Assembly (NCBI GenBank): GCA_037308085.1
Contig: CP147779.1
Span: forward strand, 544,001-608,000
Source: Promethearchaeati archaeon SRVP18_Atabeyarchaeia-1
GTDB lineage: Archaea; Asgardarchaeota; Atabeyarchaeia; Atabeyarchaeales; Atabeyarchaeaceae
DNA length: 64,000 nt
Direction: 5' to 3'
The position numbers were made by a program, and so were the translations under genes. The notes under the pieces were generated by a model. That model worked only from the letters and a program-made list of their open reading frames with translations, searched no databases and was not told where the DNA came from. Shown here piece after piece: positions 5,014-62,536 of this stretch (position 1 is the stretch's first letter; every line of letters begins with the position of its first letter).

Positions 5014-5275
5014 ACGACTATTCCCCCGCTTAAGGCAACATGAACATATGTCAGTGAAACAGTCTATAGAGTAGAACTACTCGCTTCTCCTTAATGATTT
5101 CCCTCTCTGAAGCTAATGAATCTTTTTCACATCAACCATGAGAACAAGCCGAGCAAAAGGAAACAAGACCCTCTGCTCCGTCCCGTTCGGAAAATCCTGT
5201 TAGATGCAAAACTACCAACTATCCTCAAAACATATATGTCATTTGATCATTGCACTAATAAATCTAGTGGAGAAC

Positions 5276-5327
5276 GGTTCTGTTAACTTGTTGGGTGATC
5301 GCTCTGGCTGTTAACCGTCGGGTGATG
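5276..5327 (+). repeat. Left terminal inverted repeat
   Basis: GGTTCTGTTAACTTGTTGGGTGATCGCTCTGGCTGTTAACCGTCGGGTGATG; aligns without gaps to the reverse complement of 11778-11829. Confidence 0.9.
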
Positions 5328-5336
5328 TTGAACGCA

Positions 5337-5807: not shown

Positions 5808-5895
5808 AGTAGTTGTTTTTCCGCTTTTAATCCCACCACAAAGAATGACGATGCTATTCGTATTTCCTCAACAAAACTATGATAGGAGACAGTCT

Positions 5896-7047
5896 TTAGC
5901 TTAAGGGTTTTCTATCCTGTTGGCTTGCGTTTTGGATGATTGTTAGCCACTTGTTGTCTCCTTTGACTTTGATTCCACACCTGTCTGCGGGCGTTTCTCC
6001 GTCTAAGGCTTCGTGTGGTCTAACGTAGTTGTGGAATATTTGATAGCCTTTGATGGCTGGCGTGTCTTTCTTCTTCAGCCCGCGCATGACTTTCTCCCTG
6101 TCTCTGACTTCGCCGTTCATTCTCTCCATCTTGTTATTATTGAGATCTCCCCTAGCACTAATGTGCTGAATATGCTTAGTTCTCGGACTGTGAGTAGTCC
6201 AGAACTCTTTCTTGTACGCGATATGGTAGGCTTGAAGGCCATCAGTTATTATGGTTAAGGGCTTCTTTCCTGCTAGTTCTTTTCCTCTTCGGAAGAGGGC
6301 ACCTGCATCATGCTCATATTTTGTTTCTGCTACCTCCTGCGCGATCCAAAATCTTGTTTGATCATCCATCAGGGCAAACAGGTACTTCATGTCTCCCTTG
6401 ATCTTTACATAGAGTTCGTCAGCTCTCCAAGTGTCAGAGACGTTAGGCTTTATCTGTTCAAGGTACTTACCCATGAGTTTAACGTACTTTATTATCCACT
6501 TGTAGACCGCGACATGGGAAATGTTGACACCTTGCAGTATTAGGAACTTCTGAACATTCCTCAATGATTCGCCAGTGAAGTATAGTTGCATGGCTGAGGT
6601 TATGACTTGCGGGGTTGCCCTCATCTTCTCAAAGCCAATGTTGAAGCTGAACCGCTTCCCACAGTTCCCACACCTATACCTCTGGATGTCTCCGTACTTG
6701 TTGTGGCGTAGAGAATCCTTAACTATGTCCGTTGAACCGCAGAACTTGCACACACTCATAGTTAGCGGTTCAATTACTGCTCCCGCTTGAACCTCATTCC
6801 TTAGAGCTGTTGAGAATTCAACCGCATAGATGTGCTTGCACTTTACCGCTCTATACTTGTAGTCCGGGCACTCGCAAACCCATCTATCCTCGGCCAGTGA
6901 AACGAGGTAGGCTCCGTTCCCACTCTGTGAAAGAACCCTGTAAGTTGTAGGATCAATTCTGCTTACTTGGCTTTCCTTTGCTTTTGAGATTCCTTGTCCT
7001 CGCGTTTCCCGTGCCTTTATTTGAGATTGGTTCAGTTCTGCTAACAT
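5896..7047 (-). CDS. IS6-family DDE transposase with N-terminal SWIM-like and Zn-ribbon domains
   Basis: CECPD..CKHI (SWIM), CKFC..CGNC, WRADELYVKI, ITDGL..Y, NNNKMERMNG..R. Confidence 0.88.
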   Translation of the reverse strand: MLAELNQSQIKARETRGQGISKAKESQVSRIDPTTYRVLSQSGNGAYLVSLAEDRWVCECPDYKYRAVKCKHIYAVEFSTALRNEVQAGAVIEPLTMSVCKFCGSTDIVKDSLRHNKYGDIQRYRCGNCGKRFSFNIGFEKMRATPQVITSAMQLYFTGESLRNVQKFLILQGVNISHVAVYKWIIKYVKLMGKYLEQIKPNVSDTWRADELYVKIKGDMKYLFALMDDQTRFWIAQEVAETKYEHDAGALFRRGKELAGKKPLTIITDGLQAYHIAYKKEFWTTHSPRTKHIQHISARGDLNNNKMERMNGEVRDREKVMRGLKKKDTPAIKGYQIFHNYVRPHEALDGETPADRCGIKVKGDNKWLTIIQNASQQDRKPLS

Positions 7048-7158
7048 GTTTATCGCCTTCTATAAGGGTATAAGGACATAGCTACATATAAGGCTTTCCA
7101 CATAGAAGGCGACATACTTAAAAGGGTAAAAGGGTAAATATATAAATGGTTATGGACG

Positions 7159-7335
7159 ATGACAAAAGCAATAAAGGCGAAGCATAAGACTACCAAAACT
7201 ACCATAGACATCGATGAAGATCTCTGGAAAAAATTCAGCATTATAGTTATTCAGAAATATGGTGGTCGTAAGAAAAACGCTATACTTACTGACCTCATAA
7301 AAGAATATGTGGAGAAGAACGAAGTTGGGAAATAG
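7159..7335 (+). CDS. Small ribbon-helix-helix DNA-binding protein (not in ORF track)
   Basis: Hand translation MTKAIKAKHKTTKTTIDIDEDLWKKFSIIVIQKYGGRKKNAILTDLIKEYVEKNEVGK; divergent from transposase. Confidence 0.65.
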   Translation: MTKAIKAKHKTTKTTIDIDEDLWKKFSIIVIQKYGGRKKNAILTDLIKEYVEKNEVGK

Positions 7336-7575
7336 TATGAGCCAAAACAACATTTCGCCTATAATCTTGGCTGCTATCGGAGATTCACAATCTATAGGCA
7401 TCTCTCCACATCAGGTTGCAATCAAGACTGATGAGAAGTCAACCAAGGAGTTGAAGAGTCTCGGTGCAGAAGGTTCCTGTCGATAGAGCCGTTAAGATCA
7501 TTAAGATGGCTGAAAAGACTAGGAGGAACCTGGATTTGGTGGAAGAAAGGGTGCCTTCACAAGAGGTGAGCCCTG

Positions 7576-10563
7576 ATGCCGAATAGCGAGAAAACCAAGA
7601 GCCAAGCATCTTTTGAGCAGCTTTGCTCTCTGCTCGGTTTCTCGAAGTATAATGGACTCTTCACCGATATTCAGTCGACAGAAGATGCCTATGTTAGGCA
7701 AGCTCTTGATGATGCAATAAAGAAGCTACGCATTGATGCAATATACTTCCTCAGGTCCAAGAAAGGCGGGCCTTCCATACCGCTAATATACTTCAAACTG
7801 ATGGAATATCCCACAGCTTCCGAGATAGCTGATTTGCACAAACTTTCATGGAATATGGGTCAAGCCCCCCTTCTGTTTGTGGTTCTGCCGGATACAGTTC
7901 AAATATACAATAATCTGGAACCTCCCAAGAAAGGAGATGACAAAGCTGGTTTAATTGATGAACTCAAGGTTTTCTCACAATTCGAAAACGAAAGGAAGAA
8001 GTTTAGAGACTATGAAAGAGCGGAATTCGAAACAGGCAACTATTGGCGTAGGAACATAGGTATTTTCAAGACTGATAACAGCGTTTTTCGCATGCTGCTC
8101 AAGAACCTTGACTATATGAGGCGAATTCTCGTTAATACTGGGTTATCATCCAAAATCGTTTATTCGATCCTTGTTCGCTCGATTTTTGTCAGATATCTTG
8201 AAGACAGACGAGACAAGCAAGGGCAAGGCGTCTTTCCTAATGGTTTTTTTGATCAGTTCAAAAACGGTGCGACCTGTTTCACCGATTTACTAAACACAAA
8301 GAAAGCGACGTACGACTTCTTCAGGTTTCTGGATGACAAATTCAATGGTGACATTTTCGTTGTCGGACAGGATGAAGAGGACACCATTGGGCAAGACCAT
8401 CTAGACTCACTACGAAGAATGTTAAAGGGGGAAGAGCATCTTGATACCCGCCAAATGGTACTATGGCCTTTGTACTCCTTTGACGTTATACCTATTGAAT
8501 TGATAAGTAGCATATATGAACAGTTCTTAACACTCAAAAAGCAAGAAGAAGAGGTCTCGTCGACAGGCATTCACTATACGCCGTATTATTTGGTCGCCTT
8601 TTTGATGGATGAAGTCATGCCTCTTTCGGACACAAACATCAACATGCGAATAATCGACGCAACATGCGGTTCAGGGATCTTTCTGGTCGAAGGTTACAGA
8701 AGGTTAGTGGCTCGTTGGATGAAATCTAATCGCTACCAAAACCCCGCTCCCTCAGAACTTCTCAAAATACTCAAGAATAGCATTTTTGGCGTTGACCTTG
8801 ATGAAAAAGCGATTAGAATCTCTGCCTTAAGCCTCTACCTAACTGTCTGCGACTATCTAGAGCCTAAGACCATCTGGAATGAGGTAAAATTCGAGCGGCT
8901 AGTCGGCAGTAATCTACTCGTTTTCGATTCTCTTAAAGACATTCCGGAACTTCGAGATAAATTCGATTTGGTGGTTGGTAATCCACCCTGGGAAAGTAAA
9001 CTTACAGAGTCTGCGGAAAGATATGTCAAATTACATCGGAAGAGAATCGGGGATCGCCAGATCTGCCAAGTGTTTCTCTGGAAGAGTGCTGATCTATGCA
9101 AGCCTGAAGGAAAAGTCTGTATGATTGTGTCCAGCAAAGCGCTGCTTTTCAATCGTTCATCTCGCAATTCGCAATTTAGGAAGGACTTTTTCTCGCAGTG
9201 TGAAATCAAAGCGATATTCAACTTATCGGCCCTTAGGCACTTACTCTTCTCGCATGCTGTAGGCCCCGGAGCCGCAATAGTCTTTTCACCTTCACCTCCT
9301 CCGAAAAACGAGTTGGTTTCCTACTGCTCTCCTAAGCCCAGTTTCACGCTGCAAGACGAATTATCCTTCGTAATTGAACCTCAAGACATTGCCCAGATAC
9401 CTCTTAGTGAAGCGTTGGCATCTGAAACAATCTGGAAGACCGCGATGTGGGGGTCACCAAGAGATCATGAATTGATCAGAAAGCTATCGTCCCACCCAAC
9501 CTTGGATCGGGTCGCTCGTGAGCGCGGCTGGATCCATGGAGAAGGGTATATCGTTGGAAATAAGAGGTACTTCACTAGGGAATTACTTGGGAAACTGGAG
9601 GTTTCGGCAGAAGATCTTCAGAAGTACATTGTGGAAAGCAAATCACTGAAGCGATGTTCCAAAGACCATTTCTACAGATGGGGCAAAGAGAAGAGGCAGA
9701 TATACAAAAGGCCGCACCTCCTGATAAAACAAAGTCCCAGAAAAGGGCAAGGCCTTGTATCCGCAGTAATGGTCGAAGATTCCGTGTTTCCGCAATCCAT
9801 AATTGGAATACACTGCGATGAGCAGTATCTCAGTGACCTGATAGCTGTGTGTGAAACGATAAACTCGGATTTACCATTATATTACGTAATGCTCACAAGC
9901 GGTAGGTGGCTCGTTGAGAGAGACGAATTAACGAAAAGCGAAATCATGAGCATTCCCATTCCCAAGAAGATTCTCAATAGCGGCCTTGACATGAGCTTCC
10001 TCGAAAGACTTGCAAAGGATGGGGAGTTTCGAGAAGCCGAGAATTGCAGGTTGATGAATCTCTATGGTCTGGACAAGACTGAGAAAGCACTTGTGGCAGA
10101 TTCGATAAGATTTACGCTCGACTATTTCCGCCATAAAGTGGACTCTGATGCAATCAAGCCTGCTTCTGAAACCGATGTTAAGAAATACTTGGCAAACCTG
10201 TGCCAAATTCTCAATCACCAGTTCTCACCTTCAAGCCAAAGCTTTATCGGAACCGCATATTCGACAAAGGGGCCTCTTCGAATGATATCTCTTAAGCTAG
10301 TGTCAAATGGCCGAGAAATCGTGAACGAAGAGCTAGGTGAAGAGGAGATGGACAGAGTTCTGAAACAGTTGGACCAAGAGTTAATTGAAGAGAGGGCGCC
10401 AGGTGTTTATGTTAGAAGGCATCTTCGAAGATACTCCAAAGATTCCGTACATATAATTAAGCCCAACCAGATGAGATATTGGACGAAATCATCGGCGATC
10501 CTAGATGCAGACCAGGTCTATGCAGACATCATGGAGACAGATATCACGGAAAGATCTAGGTGA
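7576..10563 (+). CDS. Large N6-adenine DNA methyltransferase (HsdM/Eco57I/type IIG-like, TaqI-like C-terminal region)
   Basis: ISSIYEQFL, HYTP, DATCGSGIFL, VGNPPW motifs. Confidence 0.87.
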   Translation: MPNSEKTKSQASFEQLCSLLGFSKYNGLFTDIQSTEDAYVRQALDDAIKKLRIDAIYFLRSKKGGPSIPLIYFKLMEYPTASEIADLHKLSWNMGQAPLLFVVLPDTVQIYNNLEPPKKGDDKAGLIDELKVFSQFENERKKFRDYERAEFETGNYWRRNIGIFKTDNSVFRMLLKNLDYMRRILVNTGLSSKIVYSILVRSIFVRYLEDRRDKQGQGVFPNGFFDQFKNGATCFTDLLNTKKATYDFFRFLDDKFNGDIFVVGQDEEDTIGQDHLDSLRRMLKGEEHLDTRQMVLWPLYSFDVIPIELISSIYEQFLTLKKQEEEVSSTGIHYTPYYLVAFLMDEVMPLSDTNINMRIIDATCGSGIFLVEGYRRLVARWMKSNRYQNPAPSELLKILKNSIFGVDLDEKAIRISALSLYLTVCDYLEPKTIWNEVKFERLVGSNLLVFDSLKDIPELRDKFDLVVGNPPWESKLTESAERYVKLHRKRIGDRQICQVFLWKSADLCKPEGKVCMIVSSKALLFNRSSRNSQFRKDFFSQCEIKAIFNLSALRHLLFSHAVGPGAAIVFSPSPPPKNELVSYCSPKPSFTLQDELSFVIEPQDIAQIPLSEALASETIWKTAMWGSPRDHELIRKLSSHPTLDRVARERGWIHGEGYIVGNKRYFTRELLGKLEVSAEDLQKYIVESKSLKRCSKDHFYRWGKEKRQIYKRPHLLIKQSPRKGQGLVSAVMVEDSVFPQSIIGIHCDEQYLSDLIAVCETINSDLPLYYVMLTSGRWLVERDELTKSEIMSIPIPKKILNSGLDMSFLERLAKDGEFREAENCRLMNLYGLDKTEKALVADSIRFTLDYFRHKVDSDAIKPASETDVKKYLANLCQILNHQFSPSSQSFIGTAYSTKGPLRMISLKLVSNGREIVNEELGEEEMDRVLKQLDQELIEERAPGVYVRRHLRRYSKDSVHIIKPNQMRYWTKSSAILDADQVYADIMETDITERSR

Positions 10564-50318: not shown

Positions 50319-50346
50319 AGGATCACACCGCTTCAACTCACCCTCA
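50319..50346 (-). repeat. atpB 3'-end copy R4 (28-nt core only)
   Basis: TGAGGGTGAGTTGAAGCGGTGTGATCCT = EGELKRCDP. Confidence 0.8.
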
Positions 50347-50413
50347 CTCTAGTTAAACCTGGATGACTAGAAACCAATCTGCCAAAAGAAAACCAAAAAA
50401 AGAAGGGGAATTG
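50347..50413. repeat. Cassette end arm, copy 1 (includes U-rich terminator on - strand)
   Basis: About 67 nt nearly identical to 54711-54776, abutting the atpB core. Confidence 0.85.
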
Positions 50414-50441
50414 GAGTGTTCCAGCGAGCGCTGCCAATCGC

Positions 50442-51779
50442 CTACATCGTTTTCCTGTTGTGCCCGTCTATCATGAAGACGAACCCAACTATGCCGTGAA
50501 GGTTCGGTACAATGAATTTCAGGTTTATGTAATCCCCTTTGAATGTCTGCGTCCACGTGTCGTCGTTGAACATGAGTGGCCCTTTCACGTTCCCGTCGCG
50601 CGAGTGAACTGCCGATATCAGTGGGCATAGGTTCCATCTTCCGTACTTGTCAACGGCGTAGAGCTTGACCTGGTCGATCCACGAGTGGCTGTTGTTGTAC
50701 GCTGCGCCGATCTCAGCGAGCCGTATCGAGCAAACCTGGTGGTTTAGAGCTGGCATCGTGGTCAAGGTGTGGAACACGGTTATGTCGCTTTCAGGGTTGA
50801 CCAAGTTGTGTAGGTTCAGGACGCCCTCGTTAACGAACCCTGTGCCGTCCCAGACCAAGAGGTCCGGGCAGCCGCCACCACCGCCAGGCGGAGGGGGAGG
50901 GGGAGGCGGATAAAGATCCAACGTGACCGATGTCTGCAGAGTTTCCAGGGTCTCAACATGGGTTGGATTACCATCTACATGTTCGAACTGAACCGTTGCA
51001 ACCAGTGTTATCATGTGGGGGATGTTGCCCCTCGTGAGGTACCACTCGATGTCGGCATAAGCCGAAGCTTCGTCCACGCCATAGTTAGCCATCCACCATA
51101 TGTTCCTCTCGTAACTGGCGTCGATGAATCCTGGGTTAATCCATGTAAAGTATCCTCCACTGCTAGCGAAGGGGACATCGGTGTAAGAGCCACCATCTTG
51201 GTTTGCCTGGGACATGTCGTTGCACAGCGTGGTGATGCTATATACCCATCCAAGGATCCCAATGCCGGCAAGGGATGTTATCAGGTCCACCCCAACACCC
51301 AAGGCATACGAGTTGAGGGGGTCGATAGGGTGTGTCTCAGGAATGGGTTTCAAGCCCAAAGTGTTGGTATTATGAATGTATATTCCCATGTATTGCTGGT
51401 AAGATGGGTCCTCAACGACGTCGAGCTTAACCCACCTCACGAAGTAGAACTGATTTCCGGCAGGGGGCTCGGTATCATGAAACACGTTAAGGAGGGAAAC
51501 ATCTATGCTGACTCGAAGCGGCAAAAGGTCATAGGAGTAGCCGCCATCTCCTCTATAGTCGAAATCATAGACGTAGCATGCAATCGCAACCCCGCCCATA
51601 TTCCCTTGCTTCGAGTCCCCAATTGTTTGCCGGAATTGTGTGTCTGTAGTGGGCGTATAAGTAGAGAAGACACTGGGATGCCACGTTGCCGCCGCTGGTG
51701 CCACAACACTGAAAGTAGTGAGTAGCATTACTGACATGAGGGCTATCGTAGCGAGCTTTAATGATCTCTTGTTCTCCAT
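50442..51779 (-). CDS. Secreted protein with Pro/Gly linker and conserved GGCP C-terminal domain (cassette gene)
   Basis: Signal peptide; PPPPPPPGGGGGCP.L.V..G..VNEG..IDQVKLYA. Confidence 0.8.
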   Translation of the reverse strand: MENKRSLKLATIALMSVMLLTTFSVVAPAAATWHPSVFSTYTPTTDTQFRQTIGDSKQGNMGGVAIACYVYDFDYRGDGGYSYDLLPLRVSIDVSLLNVFHDTEPPAGNQFYFVRWVKLDVVEDPSYQQYMGIYIHNTNTLGLKPIPETHPIDPLNSYALGVGVDLITSLAGIGILGWVYSITTLCNDMSQANQDGGSYTDVPFASSGGYFTWINPGFIDASYERNIWWMANYGVDEASAYADIEWYLTRGNIPHMITLVATVQFEHVDGNPTHVETLETLQTSVTLDLYPPPPPPPPGGGGGCPDLLVWDGTGFVNEGVLNLHNLVNPESDITVFHTLTTMPALNHQVCSIRLAEIGAAYNNSHSWIDQVKLYAVDKYGRWNLCPLISAVHSRDGNVKGPLMFNDDTWTQTFKGDYINLKFIVPNLHGIVGFVFMIDGHNRKTM

Positions 51780-51799
51780 TTACTCGTCTCACTTCTCTC

Positions 51800-52050
51800 T
51801 CCATGTCTTGCGTTCTCTCTCAGCCCTTCAATTAGGGCTAGGCGGTGACCGCCTCCAAGACAAGCAGCCTTGGCTTACCTGCCGTGTTTCGCATCTGAAC
51901 AACGCAAGCATCGTTGCTCTGGGTTTCCCTCAACCGACTTAGCTGAGTTGTTCCCTGAGCGCCCCTCTTGAGCGGCGAATCGTCTCGATTCTGAGACTCT
52001 AGTTGCCTATCACGGCAGGATTTGTTTCCCCGTCCCTCGATCAACTGATA
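51800..52050 (-). ncRNA. Candidate structured 5' leader RNA, copy A
   Basis: Stems conserved with covariation against 54220-54405; lies between TATA (52072-52080) and ATG 51779. Confidence 0.55.
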
Positions 52051-52164
52051 GAAATTATTCCGATGGACCTGCTATTTATAGTTAACGTTTTCTGCTGGGG
52101 GAATCGATTATCGCATTAGAAATAAAACGGCCCCCCGCGCAGCGGAACGTGCCTCGAGCAGAAC
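52009..52164 (-). promoter_or_regulatory. Cassette promoter block, copy A
   Basis: TATAAATAG on - strand; about 155-nt block homologous to 54366-54523. Confidence 0.7.
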
Positions 52165-52263
52165 AAGAAAAACCAGCAAGCCGAGGAAATCGAGCCCTTT
52201 CAAGAACCAGTAAGGGAAACAAGCCAAGTAGCGAGCTTGTGAGAAGGGAGGAGAGAAAAGCGA

Positions 52264-52363
52264 TCAGGCGGTTGCCTGCGGCGTCATAGAAGCGTACTTG
52301 TAGCGGCTGGCCCTGCGGGCAGCCTCAATCGTCTTTGGATCGCAAGGCTTCAACTCATTCTCA
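52264..52363 (-). repeat. atpB 3'-end copy R3 (100 nt including stop)
   Basis: Encodes [32 protein letters not shown]; 81/100 identical to 61055-61154 by hand count, no indels. Confidence 0.93.
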
Positions 52364-52579
52364 GAAGCGCACGGTGGGAGCAACCCGGTGAGATTATGTC
52401 CTACCTGCGTGACAATGTTTCATGGGATTCCTCGTCGTTGCATCGGGCTTGCTGATCTTGGAGCTTATTACCAATCTTCGAGTATTAGGGTCACAGGAAG
52501 ATGTTTACTGTCAGCATCTGGTGCATAATAGAAAAAGTAAGGGAGTTGGAGTAGTCTCTCGATCCCTTTAGGTGTTGGC

Positions 52580-54190
52580 TCAGAATTTCGATATCACGTT
52601 ATATCCGATTATGACGAATGTGAAGCTTACTGGGTGTATCCATGGTGGTAGCGCTAGGAATCTGAGGTCTATGCTCTGGCTGGCGCCATTGTTCCACTTT
52701 GCCCCAAACTCAGTTGCCCTCAAATTGTCGTCCAAGAGCAGCTGCGGCAACACGTTACCGACTTGTGTTTCAACCGCTGAAACCAAGGGTAGTTGAATAG
52801 TCTTGCCGTTACTCAGGGTAGCGTAGAGCTTGACTTGGTTGATGTGGCTGATCGTCTCCCAATGCTCCGTTAGTCGGAACACGTATGTGTGGTCAACAAC
52901 TGCTGGCGTGTCTGTTAGGATGTGGCTTCTTACCAAGTCCGTTCCATTGTACCCAGAGTGTATGTCCAGCAGACCTTCGTTGACGTACTGAGAACCGCTG
53001 TAGACGTAGAGGTACGGGCAGCCGCCACCCCCGCTCTTTGACCATTGTACGTACACTGTGACCGCCGAAGTGTAAACACAGTCTCCCAACTCGTCATAGA
53101 CTCTAGCTTGAATTGTGTGGGCTACCGGACTAGTAGAAAGGGACACTTCCTTGTACCATAGATGATTGTCTCCGGCTTCGAGATCTAGCCAGGTGCCACC
53201 GTCGCAACTTACTTGGACACCACTAATGAATGGATAATTGCCCTGGTATGCATACACATAAACGCCAACAGCAGCAGTGGATCCGCTGGTGTAGAAAGTC
53301 AGACCAGATGTCGGGTATTTAAGTTGAATCTGAGGCAAATCAGTTATTTTGTTGTAGTTGTATCTGATTACGTCATTTGCATCTATTGTTACATCCGCGT
53401 AGACAGGAGCAGTTCCCACCTGCTTCCCAGTTCTCGGATCAGTGATAGGTTGCGTATCGACTACGTAACTGACCCTGATCGCGTAGTGGACATACACGAG
53501 ATAGGAGCCGTCACCTCCTGTGCAACCGAATTGGAACTTGAACATCAATGAACGCTGTGTCGAGTCTGCCCCAAGAATTGCACGATTGCGATCGTAGTCT
53601 CCATACACATCGTTACCGGTGCCATGTCCAGTCGTGCAGAATGTTCCGTCGAGCTGTACATTCGGTAGCAAGGCGCTAAGACCCGTGCCAACGTGGGCAA
53701 GCAGAAATTTGGCGAGAGCGTTAAAGATGTATGTTAGTAATGGTGCAGCATCACTGCTTGCCGGAGGAGAGGTTTTGACCGAATCCGCGTAAAGGGAGAG
53801 CCAGTTCCCAGGTACCTGGTTGGACTTTGGATCAACCACATAGGCATCAATGCACAGCCTTGTTACCTCGCCCACCCCCGCATCGCATATCAGTCCGCAG
53901 ACGATGTTCTGGTACTGTTGATTGCTAGTTGCGAACTGGCTGACAAGATACTCAATTGACATACCATAGGTGATATTGAATGGCTGTGCGTGGTAGTAAA
54001 CCCCAGACGGTGGGGTAACACGGATTGTCTTCAATTGTGCGCCCGAATGGTAGATCCCATTTGGATATTGCTCTTCTGTTGCGGTGCATTGCGGAAGAGC
54101 GTAAGCGAACATCGTAAGCAACAAGAGCGCTGATACGAGCAATACAGCTCTATACTTGCGAGTGCCAATTCTGCATGTCAGATTTCTCAC
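52580..54190 (-). CDS. Secreted protein with Ig-like domain and conserved GGCP C-terminal domain (cassette gene)
   Basis: Signal peptide; GGGGCPYLYVYSG..VNEG..INQVKLYA. Confidence 0.8.
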   Translation of the reverse strand: MRNLTCRIGTRKYRAVLLVSALLLLTMFAYALPQCTATEEQYPNGIYHSGAQLKTIRVTPPSGVYYHAQPFNITYGMSIEYLVSQFATSNQQYQNIVCGLICDAGVGEVTRLCIDAYVVDPKSNQVPGNWLSLYADSVKTSPPASSDAAPLLTYIFNALAKFLLAHVGTGLSALLPNVQLDGTFCTTGHGTGNDVYGDYDRNRAILGADSTQRSLMFKFQFGCTGGDGSYLVYVHYAIRVSYVVDTQPITDPRTGKQVGTAPVYADVTIDANDVIRYNYNKITDLPQIQLKYPTSGLTFYTSGSTAAVGVYVYAYQGNYPFISGVQVSCDGGTWLDLEAGDNHLWYKEVSLSTSPVAHTIQARVYDELGDCVYTSAVTVYVQWSKSGGGGCPYLYVYSGSQYVNEGLLDIHSGYNGTDLVRSHILTDTPAVVDHTYVFRLTEHWETISHINQVKLYATLSNGKTIQLPLVSAVETQVGNVLPQLLLDDNLRATEFGAKWNNGASQSIDLRFLALPPWIHPVSFTFVIIGYNVISKF

Positions 54191-54219
54191 TATCCTTAGA
54201 CTCTTTCTTTCTCTATATT

Positions 54220-54405
54220 TCCCTGTCTTGTTCTCTTTCTGCCCCTCATATGGGGCCAGGCGGTGACCGCCTCCAAGACAAGTAGCCCTGGCTTCTTAGC
54301 CACCGTGACCCACGCCAGACCGACGTGCCCACGAATCATCATAGACCTCAATCTCCAGCCGCGAATCACGGCAGACTGCTTTTCCTCTTCCCTCAATCAA
54401 CTGAT
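54220..54405 (-). ncRNA. Candidate structured 5' leader RNA, copy B
   Basis: Same stems as copy A with compensatory and G-U changes. Confidence 0.55.
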
Positions 54406-54523
54406 TGAAATTATTCCGATGGATCTGCTATTTATAGCTGTCGCGTTCTACTGGGGGAAACGATTATCGCATTAGAAATAAACCGTCCTCCAGCGCATCG
54501 GGACTAGGGTCTCGGGCAGAACA
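54366..54523 (-). promoter_or_regulatory. Cassette promoter block, copy B
   Basis: TATAAATAG at 54428-54436 (-); homologous to 52009-52164. Confidence 0.7.
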
Positions 54524-54610
54524 CGCCGGCAGACCCGTTCGCGTTATCCTATTCTCCGGCACGCCGTCTGCAGAAGAGACTTGCAGGGTAGACAAATAGG
54601 GAAAGAAGGG

Positions 54611-54710
54611 TCACGCCGTTGCCTGCGGCGCCGTACACGCATACTTGTAGCGGCTGACCTTGCGGGCAGCCTCAATCGTCTTAGGATCACAACGCTTCAA
54701 CCCACCCTCA
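54611..54710 (-). repeat. atpB 3'-end copy R2 (100 nt including stop)
   Basis: Encodes [32 protein letters not shown]; 80/100 identical to the native end by hand count. Confidence 0.93.
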
Positions 54711-54776
54711 CTCTGGTTAAACCTGTATGACGAGAAACCGATCTGCCAAAAGAAGATCAAAAAAAGAAGAGAATTG
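54711..54776. repeat. Cassette end arm, copy 2
   Basis: Homologous to 50347-50413. Confidence 0.85.
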
Positions 54777-54800
54777 AAGAATCTATAGGTAGCGATGCAA

Positions 54801-55808
54801 TCACCAAGTGAGACCGTACGGATTGGGGACCTCCCACGGACCGGAAGTGGTGGCTGTATTTCCAGCGGAGTCGGTAACCGTGTGCGTAAGGATATAAGTA
54901 CCCGGCGCACTGTAAGTGTGATCTACTACAAAGCCTGTTGCCGTGGAGCCATCACCAAAGTCCCAAGTGCTGCTAACGTAAGGCGTGGTGCCTCCACTTG
55001 AACTGTCAGCGAATTGTAAGTAGAGCCCATTCCAGTGAACTGCGTAGAAGTTAGCCTGTAGTTGAAGATCCCCGGCGCAAGCAGGATAGAAAGTAGGCTC
55101 TGTAAATGACGGAGTCTCTAATGGTATTAAGCCGGGTTGGACTCTCCAATGCGTAGTTATTGTGATGCCGGTTGCAAATGCCTGGTACTTATGTGTTCTA
55201 ATCAATGCCGTCAGAAGCACTTGGTTCGAATTTGATTGTGCAATGTCATTCATTGAGAATGTCCATTGAATATAGCCTCCGAAATTGTCGTCACGCTGTG
55301 TCGTAATCGTAAGAGACTGCTGAGTGTAAGAAGATGTGGCGGAAAAGGTAAGTACGTCCTGACTATTTAGAGATACACCAGTGCCATATGTAAACGACGT
55401 CGTGCCTGTGCTCGGGTCTAGATAGACAGCCATGGATGAATGAGCTAGCTCAAGCCTCGTTGTAGCTCCAGTTATGTATCCAGATTCGCCTCGACTCTTG
55501 CTTGGGTTCATTACTTCCAAGATATAAATCGCGTAATAGTCATATTGCGTACTGGTAGTCGGGATGTACTTGATCATCCATTCATAGTGCAATTGACCAA
55601 CATAGTAAGTCGTTGTATACCATGGAAATATCCAGAAATAGAATTGATGTGTAACATAGTAATCCCTAATGACGGGACCAGAGCTTTGGGCGGTTGGGTT
55701 CGTCCATAGACTAAAGACGTCGTCCGAAGCACGAGCTGGTGCTGCTTGCACTGCCAGAATACTCGTCATCATTACTGCGATCACGATGAATGCAAATGCT
55801 TTTCTCAC
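54801..55808 (-). CDS. Secreted protein with C-terminal PKD domain (cassette gene)
   Basis: GTG start after purine-rich RBS gives signal peptide MRKAFAFIVIAV..; WDFGDG..HTY..PGTY PKD motif. Confidence 0.82.
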   Translation of the reverse strand: MRKAFAFIVIAVMMTSILAVQAAPARASDDVFSLWTNPTAQSSGPVIRDYYVTHQFYFWIFPWYTTTYYVGQLHYEWMIKYIPTTSTQYDYYAIYILEVMNPSKSRGESGYITGATTRLELAHSSMAVYLDPSTGTTSFTYGTGVSLNSQDVLTFSATSSYTQQSLTITTQRDDNFGGYIQWTFSMNDIAQSNSNQVLLTALIRTHKYQAFATGITITTHWRVQPGLIPLETPSFTEPTFYPACAGDLQLQANFYAVHWNGLYLQFADSSSGGTTPYVSSTWDFGDGSTATGFVVDHTYSAPGTYILTHTVTDSAGNTATTSGPWEVPNPYGLTW

Positions 55809-55971
55809 TCTCTCTCCCTCCTCTCTTGGTCCGCGCCTCCACGCGGCCATTCCTGACTACTCAGCCGCGTATATTTATGCATTTCGATAGAAAACTGTAC
55901 GGAGGTTGAGTATCCCCAGCCACGAATATGTCAGAAGCGTCAAAGTCAGGTTCGTGAAAATAGATCTACTT

Positions 55972-56082
55972 CTATTCCTCTATGTACTCGTACGCATTCA
56001 CCTTGCGGGCAGCCTCAATCGTCTTAGGATCACAGCGCTTCAACTCACCCTCAGGAAACACTGAAAGAAGATCCCAAGCCAT
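55972..56082 (-). repeat. atpB 3'-end copy R1
   Basis: Encodes [36 protein letters not shown]; homology to atpB about 55984-56076. Confidence 0.92.
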
Positions 56083-56116
56083 TGCTGGAAATAGGCAATA
56101 ATCAGGTGACAATAAC

Positions 56117-57073
56117 CTACTGCCGGTTCTCCGATGCATAATCGTGTAGTAGGTTCTCTTGAGAGTCGGACTTAGTTGACTCTCGACTAGTATTCGGCGT
56201 ATTAAGAATAATAACTTCCTTGATCGCTCCTCTCCCGTCGCCCTTGCAGCTTATCATTCTCTTTGCGAGGATTTCCTCCACCTTATACCCGCTGTAAAGA
56301 TCTGTGATAAGGGGAGCAGCGCTGTTACTTAGCATTAGGAGGCATCCCCTTTTTGCCAGCTCGTCGAAGACCTTAAAGAGGTTTCTTTGGTCATCCTCCG
56401 AGAATGAGCCGCTAGTGTAGCTCGTGAAACTGGAAGTCTTGGAAAGAGGCTGGTATGGTGGATCGAAATAGACAAAGTCTCCTACGGTCGCGTACCTCAA
56501 AACTTCATCATACGGTCTGATATTGAGCTCGACTCCCTCAAGTAACCTGCTTGCTTTGAGTAGGTTACGCTCCTGCACGATCGATGGCTTCTCATAGCTA
56601 CCCATTGGCACGTTGAACTTACCTTGGGAGTTGACACGGTACAGGCCATTGAAACACGTCTTGTTGAGATAAATGAAGTCAGCTGCATTCACTAGGTCCG
56701 GAAAGTCTTCTTTGTTGATCGACGTTCTGAAGTTCTGCCTAGTCTCATAATAGTGGCCTCTTGGATCTTTGTGATGCTCTCGCGCGTGTCTCTTGAGTTC
56801 TGAAAGCAATTTATTGACAGCGTCCCGGACAGAAACGAATCCGTTGATCAAAACGGAGTTGACATCGGTTAGAACGAAATCCCTCTTCGACGCACCCTTC
56901 TTTTCAAGAATACTCTTCAGATAAAAGAAGACTGCCCCACTTCCAAGGAAAGGTTCGAAGTATCTCTCAAAGACCTTGGGAAAGTATTTTCTGTACTCTC
57001 CTAGAAGCTGGGTCTTGCCGCCTGCCCATTTCACAAAGGTGGGAACAGATATCCTCGCGGATTTCGGGTCCAT
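56117..57073 (-). CDS. Dam/DpnM-family adenine methyltransferase (GATC type)
   Basis: KWAGGK, EPFLGSGAV, FNGLYRVN..G.FNVP.G, YFDPPY. Confidence 0.92.
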   Translation of the reverse strand: MDPKSARISVPTFVKWAGGKTQLLGEYRKYFPKVFERYFEPFLGSGAVFFYLKSILEKKGASKRDFVLTDVNSVLINGFVSVRDAVNKLLSELKRHAREHHKDPRGHYYETRQNFRTSINKEDFPDLVNAADFIYLNKTCFNGLYRVNSQGKFNVPMGSYEKPSIVQERNLLKASRLLEGVELNIRPYDEVLRYATVGDFVYFDPPYQPLSKTSSFTSYTSGSFSEDDQRNLFKVFDELAKRGCLLMLSNSAAPLITDLYSGYKVEEILAKRMISCKGDGRGAIKEVIILNTPNTSRESTKSDSQENLLHDYASENRQ

Positions 57074-57130
57074 AGGCGCTCTCCTATGAGTAAGTAGAAA
57101 TACATATTATATCTATTCCATGCTCGTTCA

Positions 57131-58027
57131 ATGAGTTTGGAGGGAGAATTGTTGGTAGACTATCGCTTGCTAGGCTTCGAAAGCGAGAATCAATACCTTG
57201 GCTATTTCTTCGAAACACTTCTCAAGACTAACTGGACCTACGAGTACTTCGTCTACTGGGAAAAAGTCAGAGAAAACACTAGGAAGAATGTGAAGGAGAT
57301 ATCTCTCCTAAATTCTCTGACGAAAATCCCGCCCAAGAACAGGAAGGAGGAACTTCAGAGGATCTTCATGGAGTACCCGAAGACGATACCAGTCATCCCC
57401 TCAATCATAGCAATAAGGGAGAAAATCATTCCCATCCTGGAAATCGAGAAAACACCTCTCTACAAGACATTTGACTTTTCTGTCAGAAGACTCGAAGAAC
57501 AAGAGATCCAAGATCTCACCGATTTCTGCGAGAAAGCGGGGATTCTCCAACTTCTTGGAGAGATCAACGATCTCTACGCATACATGCTCGGAGTAGAAGT
57601 CGGACTGGACTCAAATGCAAGAAAGAATAGAAGCGGAGACATATTCCAGCAACTAGTAGGCATGCTCCTGAAGAGAAAACTAAAGCAGGCGGATCTGAAA
57701 ATAGTGACTGAAGATTCAAGCGTAGTAACCACCAGGAGCAAGAGAGCAGACTTTGTTCTCTACCATAGAGGCAGTGCAAAGATAGTGATTGAGTGCAATT
57801 TCTACAACACCACCGGCAGCAAACCAATAGAGACAGCAAATGCCTACGTAGACTTCCAGCGAAGGATACGTGAGAAAGGAGGAACCTCCTTCATCTGGAT
57901 AACCGACGGGCCTGCATGGGAAACAATGAAACAAACCGTCATGCAAAGCTTCAGAGAAATCGATTTTCCAATGAACTACACGATCGCAGGCGACAGACTA
58001 GACAGCCTAGTATCAGCTCTCCTATAG
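57131..58027 (+). CDS. DpnII-family type II restriction endonuclease
   Basis: GVEVGLDSNARKNRSG, IECNFY..GSK, FIWITDG..W. Confidence 0.9.
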   Translation: MSLEGELLVDYRLLGFESENQYLGYFFETLLKTNWTYEYFVYWEKVRENTRKNVKEISLLNSLTKIPPKNRKEELQRIFMEYPKTIPVIPSIIAIREKIIPILEIEKTPLYKTFDFSVRRLEEQEIQDLTDFCEKAGILQLLGEINDLYAYMLGVEVGLDSNARKNRSGDIFQQLVGMLLKRKLKQADLKIVTEDSSVVTTRSKRADFVLYHRGSAKIVIECNFYNTTGSKPIETANAYVDFQRRIREKGGTSFIWITDGPAWETMKQTVMQSFREIDFPMNYTIAGDRLDSLVSALL

Positions 58028-58185
58028 GACCCGCAGACGCGTACTCGCGACTCGGCACAACAAAGAAAACCAGTAAACCTAGAAAACCGGGCTCTTGTAC
58101 TGCTTGGCTCCCTGCACCGCATCTCCCATTTTAGGGCCACGGTGATTGAACTCACCCCCACCCAAGGAGATCCCTTCTCACTCCA

Positions 58186-59727
58186 ATGCGCCAACGAGGG
58201 ATAGCGCTGCCAGAAATGTACCAGAGAGACGGAAGTAACAATGGCTTAGTGGAGACTATAAGGCGACAACCGGAACCACCAACCAGCAGGAAAACAAGGC
58301 GAGGCCAGACTATGACCGGCGGACAATCGGCTGAAAGTAGCAATGGGTCTTCTCCGCTTGAACTCAACAAGAAACCCCGAGGCTTCGCCGGCGAAAACCT
58401 AGAACAGCTTATTGATCAGGGAGTACTGCCCAAGAAGGATGAAGCAAAGCTAGGCAACAACACGGTCTTGAGACTTGACGTGAATATGGGGCTCACCATA
58501 ACCCACGAGAACATAGACTACAGGATCTCAAGCGCGAACCACAGCAAGATAGGAGACCTAGACTTCTACAGATACGCCACCCAACGCGGGGAGGAATTCC
58601 TCCACATCCCAGCCCAAGGCAAGCTTGTCCCACCCACTGAAATGACCTGGTACGCGTACCCCCCTAACACGGAAGTATATCTGGACAAGAAGTACAAGCA
58701 CAAACTGCTTGAGACTGCAGTAAAGAAGGCAGGAGGGATAGTTGCCCTTCGGCATGAACTAAAGCGAAACGGAACAAGAATGAACGCCATGTACGTCTAC
58801 AAGCAGCTGAACGATCTGAGAAAAGGTATGACTGAAGATAAGTTGATTCCAATTCTCAACTACCTAGGAAGAAACCTAGATGAGGCAAGCAACCACATCT
58901 ACGCGATAGGACACATCCAAGCAGTGAAGGACCCTCAACTACCGTTCAACTTGAGTGGAAAGGATGGTGCAAGGCTACTATCTGCCAGGTACGGAGACGG
59001 AACACTCTGTGCATCAGTAGGGAGAGGACCAAGGTTTGACTACTCTAACAATGATACAGAGATGAGAGACAGAGTAATCGAATCATTAACCAATGTGTTC
59101 GGCGAACCAAACGTACTCAACAGAGAGCACAGTGATGGCCGAGTCTCGCAGGTGCGTACATCGTCAGACATCATCGGACATGCACTGCAAAGGGCGGGAG
59201 CAATAACCGGTGAAATCGTTAACCAGAATCCTCACGTACCCACATGGATCGAACAGGGATCCATAGAAAACAAGCGCGAGTGGATAGTCCAAGCCTTTGG
59301 TGACGAAGGATTTGTGTGGGCAAACAGGGGAAAGGTCTGCATAGGAAGATCTGTCGAGTTGACAAGCGTCTTGCTAGAACACATGTCTCGACACCTTGAT
59401 CAGATGGACTGGGGGAGCAGGTATATTGACGATGTCTTTGTCGATGACGTAAGAGCATGTGATGATCTTCCAGCCGACATCACTCAGGCGATAAGAGAGC
59501 ATCCCATCAACCTGCTAGTCGAAGAGAAGAAGATGCTTGAAGATTTCGGCATAGTCACAGAAATGTATCCCTCAGAGATTCATAGAGGAAAGTATGGAGA
59601 CTATTCAGCTCATTGGACCCTGCAAGCCAAAACAAGAGAAGACACGAGACGTTTCTATGAGGAGATAGGGTTTCCCCAAGAAAGAAAGCAGGAGGACCTA
59701 AGATCGGCTATTCGGTTTGAGAGGTGA
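58186..59727 (+). CDS. Free-standing LAGLIDADG homing-endonuclease-like protein (start possibly 58312)
   Basis: Two degenerate motifs LLSARYGDG and IVQAFGDEG; C-terminal FYEEIGF..RKQE.L. Confidence 0.65.
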   Translation: MRQRGIALPEMYQRDGSNNGLVETIRRQPEPPTSRKTRRGQTMTGGQSAESSNGSSPLELNKKPRGFAGENLEQLIDQGVLPKKDEAKLGNNTVLRLDVNMGLTITHENIDYRISSANHSKIGDLDFYRYATQRGEEFLHIPAQGKLVPPTEMTWYAYPPNTEVYLDKKYKHKLLETAVKKAGGIVALRHELKRNGTRMNAMYVYKQLNDLRKGMTEDKLIPILNYLGRNLDEASNHIYAIGHIQAVKDPQLPFNLSGKDGARLLSARYGDGTLCASVGRGPRFDYSNNDTEMRDRVIESLTNVFGEPNVLNREHSDGRVSQVRTSSDIIGHALQRAGAITGEIVNQNPHVPTWIEQGSIENKREWIVQAFGDEGFVWANRGKVCIGRSVELTSVLLEHMSRHLDQMDWGSRYIDDVFVDDVRACDDLPADITQAIREHPINLLVEEKKMLEDFGIVTEMYPSEIHRGKYGDYSAHWTLQAKTREDTRRFYEEIGFPQERKQEDLRSAIRFER

Positions 59728-59984
59728 AAAGAAACACTATCAAAGAAAATCAAACAGTACTAGTTCAGCAGGCGTATGAATAGTGGAAGGCTGAATACAT
59801 CAAGGAGGAGTAACTGCTGGGATGGCCGAAGGGAAAAGGACTGTCACCAGAAGAAAGGCAACATCCCAAAATAATGACTCCTGGATGGGTGACTCAAGTA
59901 CTTGAATACGTATTCAACCTAATGAAGAAAGTTATGCTTAGGCAATAATCCCAAAAGTTTAATATCGTTTGCCAAATACTTAGC

Positions 59985-60704
59985 TTGAGGGGATACGGTT
60001 TGGTTCGCCAAGTCAGGAGACCCATAGAAAGGCTCACCGATATGCTTCTTCTGCTCTTTCTGATCAACGATGTTAATGATAAAGATCATAACTGCGGAAT
60101 CACGAAGCTACAGAAGCTTGTTTTTCTGTCCCAACTAGAAATGAACAACCATAGACAGAAGGGGTTCAGCTACAAGTTCGTGAAAATAAATCTCGGACCA
60201 GTCAGTGGTCAGATTGAGAAAACTGACATTCCCAAGCTAGAGAAGGTTGGATACTTAGCCCAGGAGCAAGTTGGCAACTTCAACAAGTTTGTTGCCAGTG
60301 AGAGCGGTTCCAGATTTCTTAGCCATCTTTCAGGCATTTTCCATCGGAACGAACGATTCGTGCAGATTATATCCAGAATCAACGAGAAGTACTCTGGCAT
60401 GTCAGCCACTGATCTTGTTAACGAGGTTCACAGTATGCCGAACCCCTACAGGCGGAATCTGACCATAGATGAAACCCCCCAAGGAGAGGTCTTACTCTCA
60501 AAGATATCAGACAAAGCCACCCAAACAAGATTCGACTTCACCGGTAACGAACTCGCAACCCTTGAACTCTACTTTGACGCGGAGGCCAGAGAATCAGTTG
60601 AACGTGCAATGAGTTCAGCACTAAGTGAGCCTAGCGTTCCTTGGGAGGTCGTCCTTAGACATGCAGAAGAAGCGCTACGAGGTAAGGGTCAGCAAAGACT
60701 TTGA
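59985..60704 (+). CDS. Panacea/SocA-like (DUF4065) antitoxin
   Basis: GITKLQKLVFL..F...GPVS; overlaps downstream RelE gene. Confidence 0.7.
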   Translation: MRGYGLVRQVRRPIERLTDMLLLLFLINDVNDKDHNCGITKLQKLVFLSQLEMNNHRQKGFSYKFVKINLGPVSGQIEKTDIPKLEKVGYLAQEQVGNFNKFVASESGSRFLSHLSGIFHRNERFVQIISRINEKYSGMSATDLVNEVHSMPNPYRRNLTIDETPQGEVLLSKISDKATQTRFDFTGNELATLELYFDAEARESVERAMSSALSEPSVPWEVVLRHAEEALRGKGQQRL

Positions 60705-60996
60705 GCGCGAATTCATAAAACTCGTTAAGAGAGACCCTGAACTGAAGCGCAGACTTGAGTCTCGAATCGAGGAGCTTTCTATAGATCCTAGATTAGGAAC
60801 GACGCTCTACAAGTGGGATTATCAAGGCTGGAGGAAGGCTAGGGTTGGAGAGTACCGCATAATACTGGGAGTGTGCGAGGAATGCAGACAGATCCGAAAC
60901 CCGAATCTGCAACGATGCATCGACTGCGATCAAATGACTGACAACTTAGTGAAACTCATTGAAGTCGGTCACCGGAACGATGTCTATGATGACTAA
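60661..60996 (+). CDS. RelE/ParE-family toxin with CxxC-CxxC insertion
   Basis: YEVRVSKDFERE..RKARVGEYRII..IEVGHRNDVY. Confidence 0.85.
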   Translation: MQKKRYEVRVSKDFEREFIKLVKRDPELKRRLESRIEELSIDPRLGTTLYKWDYQGWRKARVGEYRIILGVCEECRQIRNPNLQRCIDCDQMTDNLVKLIEVGHRNDVYDD

Positions 60997-61054
60997 GAAA
61001 AATGCCTGCCCAATTCAAGTTTGAATCATGCCAAACGAGGTAGACGAAAGAAAG

Positions 61055-62536
61055 CTAGGCGGTTGCCCGCGGAGACATAGACGCGTACTTATAGCGACTG
61101 GCCTTCCGGGCAGACTCGATCGTCTTCGGATCACAGCGCTTCAACTCACCTTCAGGAAACGCCGACAACAAATCCCAACCAAGATCCAAAGTCTGCTCAA
61201 TGCTGCGATCCTCGTATTCCCCTTGACTAATAAACTTGCGCTCAAAGGTGTCAGCAAACTTCAGGTAGAGCTTGTCCCTATCAGTCAAAGCCTCCTCACC
61301 AATAACGGCAACCAAATCACGGAGATCCATACCCTCACTAAAAGCATAGTAAAGCTGATCCGACACTTCACGATGATCCTCACGCGTATGCCTAGTCCCA
61401 TCCTTCTCGACACCGATGCCCTCTTTCATTAGGCGACTCAGAGAAGGACGCGGATCCATCGGAGGGTAGATGCCCTTGTGGTGTAATGCCTCAGAAATAA
61501 TCAGTTGTCCCTCAGTGATATAACCGGTAAGGTCGGGAACGGGATTCGTAATGTCCCCGTGGGGCATCGTGAGGACGGGCATTTGTGTGATGGTGCCTTT
61601 TCTGCCTTGTATTCTTCCTGCTCTTTCGTAGATGGTGGCGAGGTCTGTGTAGAGGTATCCGGGGTATCCTCTTCTTCCTGGGACTTCTTCTCTTGCTGCG
61701 CTTATTTCTCGTAGGGCTTCTGCGTAGTTGGTCATGTCTGTTAGGATGACGAGTATGTGTAGGTTTTGTTGGTATGCGAGGTATTCTGCGGTGGTGAGTG
61801 CGCATCTGGGTGTTATGATGCGTTCGATGGCTGGGTCGTCTGCGAGGTTTAGGAAGAGGGTGCATCTTTCTAGTGCGCCGGTGCGTTCGAAGTCTTTGCG
61901 GAAGTATTGGGCTTCTTCTGCGGTGATGCCCATGGCTGCGAAGATTACTGCGAATTGTTCTTCTTTGCCGAGTACTTTGGCTTGTCTGGCTATTTGTGCT
62001 GCTATGCGGTTGTGTGGGAGTCCTGCTCCGCTGAAGAGTGGTAGTTTTTGTCCGCGGACGAGGCTGTTCATGCCGTCGATGGTGCTGATGCCGGTTTGTA
62101 TGAATTCTCTGGGGTAGGCTCTTGCGTCGGGGTTGATGGGGCTGCCGTTTATGTCCCACATGTCTTCGGGGATGATTGGTGGGCCGTTGTCGATGGGTTC
62201 GCCTGAGCCGTCGAGTATTCTTCCGAGGATGTCTGTTGTGACCGGGATCTTTAGCGTTTCTCCTGTGAATCTGGCTGTGGTGTTCTTCGTGTCGAGTCCT
62301 GTTGTTCCCTCGAAGACTTGGACGATGGCTTTTCCTCGCCCTACTTCGAGGACTGTGCCTTTTCTCTTTTCTCCGTCCGGTGTTTCGATGTTGACGAGTT
62401 CGTTGAAGGACACGCCTTCTACGTTTTGAAGTATTATTAGTGGTCCCTTGACTTCGGTTACTGTCCTGTAGGTTCTCTTGGTGTAGAGGTCGGACGTTGC
62501 GGTCCGTGGTTCTGATTCTTCTCTTGCTGTCTTCAT
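61055..62536 (-). CDS. atpB: A/V-type ATP synthase subunit B
   Basis: [59 protein letters not shown]. Confidence 0.97.

Follow-up and report, generated by a model that had tools for sequence, protein, structure and literature searches.

A conserved three-hairpin element beside the start codons of exported-protein genes in Bathyarchaeia and Asgard archaea: a candidate structured leader RNA

Two genes and their leaders in the Atabeyarchaeia window

The stretch of DNA analyzed here (the window; 64,000 nucleotides (nt) of Promethearchaeati archaeon SRVP18_Atabeyarchaeia-1, contig CP147779.1, positions 544,001 to 608,000) carries on its minus strand two genes, A and B, each preceded by a copy of a conserved, structured element of ~75 nt that is the subject of this work. 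Gene A (50442..51779, minus strand) encodes 445 amino acids (aa) from an ATG at 51779, and gene B (52580..54190, minus strand) encodes 536 aa from a GTG at 54190. Both products have an N-terminal signal peptide, and neither has a family in Pfam or NCBIfam. The two proteins have only a C-terminal domain of ~150 aa in common, with 37% identity over 151 aa, while the leaders agree at 86% of positions in a 65-nt core; this core is thus far better conserved than the cargo. The common domain (50445-50900 and 52583-53032, minus strand) opens with a Gly run followed by Cys-Pro (GGGGCP.L..W/Y.G..YV.EG.L.IH), and it also ends an 849-aa signal-peptide protein in an element-bearing Bathyarchaeia array (L214:9800-10277, plus strand).

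A conserved TATA box, TATAAATA, lies at 52073-52080 for gene A and at 54429-54436 for gene B, ~270 and ~215 nt 5' of the respective start codons. Its position bears out an earlier note on this DNA, made from the letters alone, which had placed leaders of about these lengths on the minus strand of both genes. The promoter module of gene A (52021..52148, minus strand) comprises TATAAATA and the predicted first transcribed bases UAUCAGUUGAUCGAGGGA, with a transcription start site (TSS) expected near 52050; the module of gene B (54377..54504, minus strand) is the same, with a TSS expected near 54406, both start sites being placed by the usual archaeal TATA-to-TSS spacing. Over 173 nt the AT-rich promoter modules of A and B are 78% identical, the sequence UAUCAGUUGAUYGAGGGA is found downstream of TATAAATA in both leaders, and the module recurs 5' of copy D of the element in the sister genus (genome G002).

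Each leader also contains a long stem around an insert unrelated to that of the other, as the earlier note had described. In leader A this lineage-specific stem (51878..52019, minus strand) pairs CCUGCCGUG at 52011-52019 with CACGGCAGG at 51878-51886 around an insert of ~125 nt and closes directly 5' of the element. The stem of leader B (54300..54374, minus strand) pairs CUGCCGUGA at 54366-54374 with UCACGGUGG at 54300-54308, includes two G-U pairs, encloses a shorter insert and appears in the minimum free energy (MFE) fold of its leader.

The element itself consists of three hairpins, H1 to H3, and a purine-rich tail. Copy A occupies 51802..51882 on the minus strand and was scored by cmsearch with our covariance model R1 at 79.7 bits (E 8.6e-20). 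Its H1 (51855..51873) is a 7-bp helix, CCAAGGC-UGCUU-GUCUUGG, with family-wide covariation; its H2 (51840..51854, AGGCGG-UCA-CCGCCU) has both-side changes in the model-found set of relatives described below; its H3 (51823..51838, GCCCU-AAUUGA-AGGGC) is defined by the alignment and the model-found set; and its tail, UGAGAGAGAAC at 51812..51822, belongs to a segment that is nearly invariant in the family outside the search pattern. The MFE fold of leader A has H1, H2 and H3 in tandem (z -4.9). Copy B (54220..54300, minus strand; 79.3 bits, E 1.1e-19) has the same parts, assigned from sequence and alignment: H1 at 54273..54291 (CCAGGGC-UACUU-GUCUUGG, with two G-U pairs), H2 at 54258..54272, H3 at 54241..54256 (GCCCC-AUAUGA-GGGGC) and the tail AGAAAGAGAAC at 54230..54240.

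A third cassette of the window had been credited with a short leader hairpin containing UGGAGGCG. The hairpin is present at ~55826-55846, but it is not a member of the family (9.2 bits, E 2.9). The 8-mer UGGAGGCG occurs seven times in the window against 2.05 expected, a count reached in 1 of 100 shuffles.

A scan of the window with Infernal and Rfam 15 (4227 models) returned two tRNAs only at the gathering score and no match in 51700-54800 at E<=10, and literature searches found no earlier description of the element. The family is therefore undescribed in Rfam and in the literature searched.

Architecture and covariation of the element family

Relatives were collected with a search pattern of 21 specified bases, matched exactly and taken from H2 (the helix that the earlier note called P2). 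At least 120 metagenome contigs matched, against a rough chance estimate of ~1; among the matches listed, ~10 are G+C-rich bacterial chance matches. The pattern also matched metagenome-assembled genomes (MAGs) of Bathyarchaeia/Thermoproteota and Ca. Atabeyarchaeum deiterrae (CP147780.1), and the match in the latter is identical to the copy in G002. An alignment of 98 copies, A3, was built, and since H2 had been fixed by the search pattern, covariation was re-tested in a second set, A4, of 67 model-found matches that were not selected on H2 or H3.

The consensus has H1 of the form CCANNNN-loop-NNNNUGG, H2 directly adjoining it (AGGCG-YGUCAC-CGCCU), a single A, H3 (GCCCY-AANUGA-RGGGC) and then the near-invariant tail, with the family consensus CAGAAAGAGAAC. 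Conservation in H1 concerns the shape only, whereas in H2, H3 and the tail it extends to the sequence. The arms of H1 vary widely in A3 (CGC/GUG, ACAC/GUGU, GAGU/ACUU, GCGG/CCGU, AGGC/GCCU, AAGC/GCUU), with pairing retained in 96.9% of cells, and in A3 as a whole 96.7% of cells are paired, a value that none of 500 shuffles attained. In A4, both-side changes occur at 15 of 17 pairs, compared to 7.8 +/- 1.2 in shuffles (0/500 as high), and 94.2% of cells are paired, compared to 19-48% with slid partners; variant helices in this set include GGUG/CACC in H2 and GUCC/GGAC, GGGC/GCCC and GAAC/GUUC in H3. The ratio of G-U to A-C in paired cells is 96:9 in A3 and 70:22 in A4. This excess of G-U identifies the folding strand as the strand of the downstream gene. 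A three-hairpin structure on the sense strand is under selection. Covariation is strong in these large alignments, and P2 (GGCGG-UCA-CCGCC) and P3 (GCCCU/AGGGC in A, GCCCC/GGGGC in B) of the earlier note, our H2 and H3, are real and conserved across the family.

The remainder of the structure proposed in that note fared differently. It had P1 (UGUCUUG/CAAGACA) enclosing P2 and P3 in a three-way junction, and an upstream strand competing with P3 as a switch through a GGCUG/UAGCC helix. P1 can form in A and B and is used in the MFE fold of both cores and of leader B, and under the strict model the two folds are close in energy (P1 -24.8/-27.9 versus H1 -28.0/-30.4 kcal/mol for A/B). Across the 98 relatives, however, P1 is paired in 57.7% of cells against a shuffle mean of 57.6%, and it does not exceed slid controls either. 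P1 is therefore not a conserved structure of the family: its 5' arm, UGUCUUG, is the 3' arm of H1, which pairs with the upstream CCAAGGC, and the actual arrangement is three hairpins in tandem. The competing helix has no both-side change, and 86 of 97 sequences cannot form its first pair. When the 3' arm of H1 was paired with the sequence downstream of it, copies A and B ranked within the extreme 1-2% of permuted controls, and copies C and D at an unremarkable 8-15%. Because A and B are recent paralogues, their values count as a single weak observation; a local switch might operate in these two copies alone. We regard the enclosed junction with its switch as very improbable. Of the note's wider proposal of an undescribed cis-regulatory RNA, what stands is that the element is undescribed, conserved, covarying and on the sense strand; P1, the junction and the switch helix competing with P3 do not.

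A riboswitch of another design, in which a small molecule or ion is bound and alters access to the ribosome-binding site, would be in keeping with several features: the loops, junction and tail are conserved in sequence and H1 in shape only, multiple copies per genome precede varied genes for surface or exported proteins, and the alternative helix of A and B that competes with H1 is close to it in energy and is used in the core MFE folds. The known parallel is the GEMM-I or cyclic di-GMP-I riboswitch (RF01051), a multi-copy bacterial 5'-leader motif located before unrelated genes for surface, secreted and membrane proteins. Our element is likewise a multi-copy leader motif before many unrelated genes for surface or exported proteins. 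It differs in that cmscan gave no match at E<=10 and in that it is archaeal and is without an enclosing helix, a tetraloop-receptor or a conserved expression platform. More generally, riboswitches differ in having a conserved mutually exclusive pairing, for which P1, the H1 3' arm and GGCUG/UAGCC were all negative here; for the H1 3' arm against its own downstream sequence, the family-wide energy was -4.94 kcal/mol compared to -4.88 kcal/mol for permuted sequence (p 0.33). Neither an enclosing helix nor a multi-helix junction is conserved in the family, the stretch from the tail to the Shine-Dalgarno (SD) motif varies in length and sequence, and no mutual covariation between the H2 and H3 loops is evident by eye. 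A riboswitch is accordingly an improbable reading. A kissing interaction between the H2 loop (UCAC) and the H3 loop (GUGA) was considered and rejected, as their complementarity is just partial and no covariation between them was seen by eye.

Position, downstream genes and distribution

A same-strand open reading frame (ORF) of at least 40 aa starts within ~135 nt of the tail in 92 of 105 distinct copies, and the orientation of the element always matches that of the downstream gene. The distance from the tail to the start codon has a median of 26 nt (interquartile range 20-35 nt) and is at most 60 nt in 91% of those kept, with an SD-like motif 5' of the start in 57 of 91 cases. Upstream, two situations recur: a promoter-like AT-rich box lies 60-270 nt away, or a preceding gene on the same strand has its stop codon just before the element or inside it. 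Short alternating (GC)n runs, such as GGCGCGCGCGCGG, were also observed 50-120 nt from the element in the unrelated metagenome loci L022, L029, L034, L041, L104, L099 and L122.

A strongly hydrophobic N-terminal segment is encoded by 79 of 88 downstream ORFs, compared to 196 of the 798 other ORFs at these loci (odds ratio 27, p 5e-34, for sequences that are not independent). Thus, ~90% of the downstream proteins begin with a signal peptide or a membrane anchor, and the background ORFs do so in 25% of cases. Most of them have no Pfam family, and the others are of extracellular type (PKD, InlB B-repeat, PQQ propeller, NosD, M28, reprolysin). The element is near-exclusively linked to exported or membrane proteins, at a fixed place beside the start codon.

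Our preferred reading of these observations is that the element is an undescribed cis-acting structured leader RNA for exported-protein genes, which we hold to be somewhat probable from comparative sequence analysis. The element would be part of the mRNA, in the 5' untranslated region (UTR) or between cistrons, ending ~20-35 nt before the start codon and placing stable hairpins directly 5' of an unstructured, A-rich landing zone for the ribosome. A trans-acting factor, probably a protein, would recognize H2, H3 and the tail, with H1 serving as a structural spacer stacked on H2, and this factor may set translation initiation and/or mRNA stability for the set of exported-protein genes.

Two bacterial systems resemble parts of this arrangement. 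JUMPstart/ops is a 12-nt non-template DNA element, RfaH-dependent and read by a NusG paralogue during elongation, which lies upstream of surface-polysaccharide, pilus and haemolysin operons. It is similar in being a short conserved leader element common to many operons for cell-surface products; the present element differs in its 75 nt, its three covarying hairpins and its location beside the ribosome-binding site. The stabilizer hairpins in the 5' UTR of ompA in E. coli, a single-gene feature without a sequence family, likewise lie 5' of a single-stranded ribosome-binding region on the mRNA of an exported protein, whereas the element is a conserved multi-gene family in two archaeal phyla.

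Stabilization by itself, with an endonuclease cutting polycistronic transcripts beside the element and the hairpins shielding the new 5' end from 5'-to-3' decay without any regulator, would fit the many copies located directly after an upstream stop codon in same-strand arrays and the stable hairpins 5' of an unstructured tail, and copies that follow promoters could equally stabilize mRNA through 5' hairpins. We nevertheless think such punctuation of transcripts unlikely, to a degree similar to the riboswitch, as simple protection would not require H2, H3 and the tail to be so strictly conserved in sequence, the confinement of the element to exported-protein genes would be unexplained, and the element matched no ribozyme or other Rfam model.

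With regard to a partner for the proposed leader RNA, a conserved 47-aa ORF (MKKAVIIVKLVPES...IPWAAKIEKVTV) ends 6-30 nt 5' of the element in at least 14 Bathyarchaeia loci with differing downstream genes; examples are L031:1477-1617 (plus strand), L066:1010-1150 (plus strand) and G124:C83:23394-23534. It was rejected as a recognizable RNA-binding partner: Pfam gave only one sub-threshold match (E 0.093), NCBIfam has no family for it, and its AlphaFold2 model (beta-alpha-alpha-beta, mean predicted local distance difference test score 84) had no match in the PDB at E<=0.001. Among 151 genomes, 12 are positive for the element, 12 for the ORF and 7 for both together, a co-occurrence that may be explained by kinship. 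The ORF was not found in the window's own genome.

In the class of G061, one of the pattern-matched MAGs, model R1 detected the element in 12 of 151 genomes, at 1-7 copies each, and in 3 of 151 Asgard genomes. The window's own genome (G000) has three copies, the sister genus G002 has one and G001 has none. The third copy of G000 (C1:1901690-1901770, minus strand), found by BLAST and by the covariance model, lies 5' of a gene for a small secreted protein. The sole other Asgard copy is L219 (G218:C59:2063-2144), on a contig of ~2.8 kb in an 88%-complete MAG, for which mis-binning of Bathyarchaeia DNA is possible. The best reading of this distribution is that a subset of the Bathyarchaeia is the main home of the family and that the Asgard copies (the two of the window, the third in the same genome and the one in the sister genus) are outliers, which probably arrived with transferred gene cassettes. 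Spread by viruses was rejected, as the search pattern had 0 matches in 2.9 million viral contigs.

Possible cassette exchange and the significance of the element

Several points weigh against a regulatory leader RNA and have to be set beside the evidence above. The invariance of H2 in A3 is circular, since the search pattern was drawn from this helix; alignment of A4 to the model biases its pair counts toward the model's structure; and the sequences within both sets are related, so that the p-values overstate the significance. Complementarity of the tail, loops and junction to 16S rRNA or to signal recognition particle (SRP) RNA was not above that of shuffles, and a single low value for the SRP RNA of G061 was not reproduced in other genomes. 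Across the family, the analysis revealed neither a conserved alternative pairing nor a conserved expression platform. Additionally, upstream ORFs often enter the element, ~12 of them in one stop-free frame (K-P-x-L-x-x-L-E-A-C/R-H-R-L-A...). Finally, when 95 distinct copies were compared, copies were located exactly at mosaic junctions, and tandem arrays occur, such as four copies in 2.5 kb in L083 and four in G061:C13; junctions and arrays together fit a role in recombination.

As to the ORFs, a coding tail was tried as an explanation of the conserved element and rejected. The 'codons' of H1 would vary non-conservatively (T/E/A/R/M and V/T/P/A) with the base pairs retained, and upstream ORFs run into the element in all three frames. 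Together with indels of 1 nt in H3 and in the loops of H1 and H2, these observations indicate that the element is not coding.

The mosaics deserve closer consideration, since they raise the possibility that the element acts at the DNA level, as a junction at which cassettes for exported proteins are exchanged, with its leader position being secondary. The ~80-nt repeats could recombine homologously, or a dedicated recombinase could recognize one folded strand, as happens at attC; a folded single strand of DNA would also tolerate the G-T pairs that correspond to G-U in the alignments. In the comparison of flanks, homology breaks at the element edges: in 26 pairs the 100 nt upstream are at least 85% alike while the downstream sequences are unrelated, in 10 pairs it is the other way round, and just 2 pairs are alike on both sides (examples of such breaks are L058/L077, L052/L075/L085 and L052/L066). 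The tandem arrays, the overlap or truncation of upstream ORFs by the element and its patchy occurrence across the two sets of 151 genomes are further points in favor. The four-copy array of G061:C13 (L214:4481-4722, 4804-10492) lies directly after a leucyl-tRNA synthetase gene and a stretch with a tRNA-gene-like translation; tRNA genes are typical hot spots of integration.

Within the window, the two copies lie in an array of modules (50319-61160) that also speaks for the exchange of cassettes, with boundaries of a different kind. An A-type ATPase subunit gene at 61055-62536 (minus strand) has its last 35-105 nt repeated, one repeat ending each of five modules. The repeats are at 50319-50352, 52264-52363, 54611-54710, 55985-56053 and 58133-58166 (the last one weak), with the gene end itself at 61055-61160, all on the minus strand. 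The modules hold a Panacea-domain protein with a 513-aa ORF, a DpnII restriction-modification pair, a PKD-domain protein, gene B and gene A, and they look like the result of serial capture at one site in the 3' end of the ATPase gene. The restriction-modification module at 56117-58027 consists of a DpnII-type endonuclease (PF04556, plus strand) and a D12-class adenine methyltransferase (PF02086, minus strand). A 'small conserved ORF' between the cassettes is a copy of the repeated ATPase-gene tail, and further partial copies of this tail are found in G001 and G002. The module boundaries in the window are thus the ATPase-tail repeats and not the element, which lies 170-230 nt 3' of the conserved promoter.

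This arrangement counts against the element being the site of exchange, as do its fixed orientation, its ~26-nt spacing to the start codon and the 90% link to signal peptides or membrane segments, all of which recombination leaves unexplained. Mosaicism is also to be expected at any conserved repeat, and the search pattern had no match in the viral contigs. No tyrosine recombinase gene (PF00589) was found in the window (0.544-0.608 Mb); matches elsewhere in the genome lie at 1.55, 1.66, 2.02 and 2.59 Mb, and the Bathyarchaeia arrays were not searched. As a side observation from the same genome, the 16S rRNA gene (L218, G000:C1:448464-450889) matches over 2426 nt against a model of 1478 positions, with ~0.9 kb inserted, possibly an intron.

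The closest known recombination sites differ in their design as well. With attC sites, including those of archaeal integrons (Ghaly et al. 2022, cited in PMC11529989), the likeness consists of a strand-specific folded repeat between same-strand cassettes in arrays, at which homology breaks and which cassette ORFs may overlap. An attC site is one imperfect hairpin of 55-140 nt with extrahelical bases, whereas covariation here supports three short hairpins of 7, 5 and 5 bp. The R''/R' cores of attC (RYYYAAC/GTTRRRY), with their AAC and GTT, are not conserved in the element; the nearest look-alikes are H1 arms reading AGCCAAC and GTTGGAG, with one mismatch each and 5-7 nt apart, and in about half of the copies the arms of H1 read differently (e.g., CCAGAGU/ACUUUGG, CCAAGGC/GCCUUGG). 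The element is also set apart from attC by its close spacing to start codons, its tie to exported proteins and a window without an integrase gene.

The Mycoplasma vpma, vsp and vsa loci, in turn, contain short double-stranded DNA sites for an Xer-like recombinase that acts by inversion. As in those clusters, in which the surface-protein genes are shuffled, the same conserved 5' UTR sequence stands on each gene; the copies described here differ in being direct repeats, structured on one strand and without a linked recombinase. The earlier note had also allowed for a miniature inverted-repeat transposable element (MITE). The fixed orientation relative to genes and the lack of terminal inverted repeats in the alignment distinguish the element from MITEs and insertion-sequence repeats (target-site duplications were not examined). 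Taking both sides together, a primary role in recombination seems unlikely to us, yet it is the main rival of the leader RNA.

We therefore return to the leader RNA as the preferred reading. To our knowledge, few structured cis-regulatory RNAs have been recognized in archaea, and we know of none tied to the secretome. The motif occurs in more than 100 copies, each of its three helices covaries, and it is common to the sediment-abundant Bathyarchaeia and an Asgard lineage. Model R1 is a covariance model ready for annotation. The element provides a handle on the coordination or targeting of the surface proteome in uncultured archaea and, additionally, a marker with which the exchange of cassettes between phyla of the same wetland and sediment habitats can be traced.

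A bolder proposition, which we offer as speculative and rather unlikely, is that the element is an RNA address label of the archaeal secretome or, in DNA terms, the folded-strand crossover site of a new cassette system for exported proteins that works at a distance from its integrase. Should the address label be true, a tag read by a factor would single out the mRNAs of exported and membrane proteins, to be controlled jointly or delivered to the membrane, and gene cassettes would carry this tag between Bathyarchaeia and Asgard archaea.

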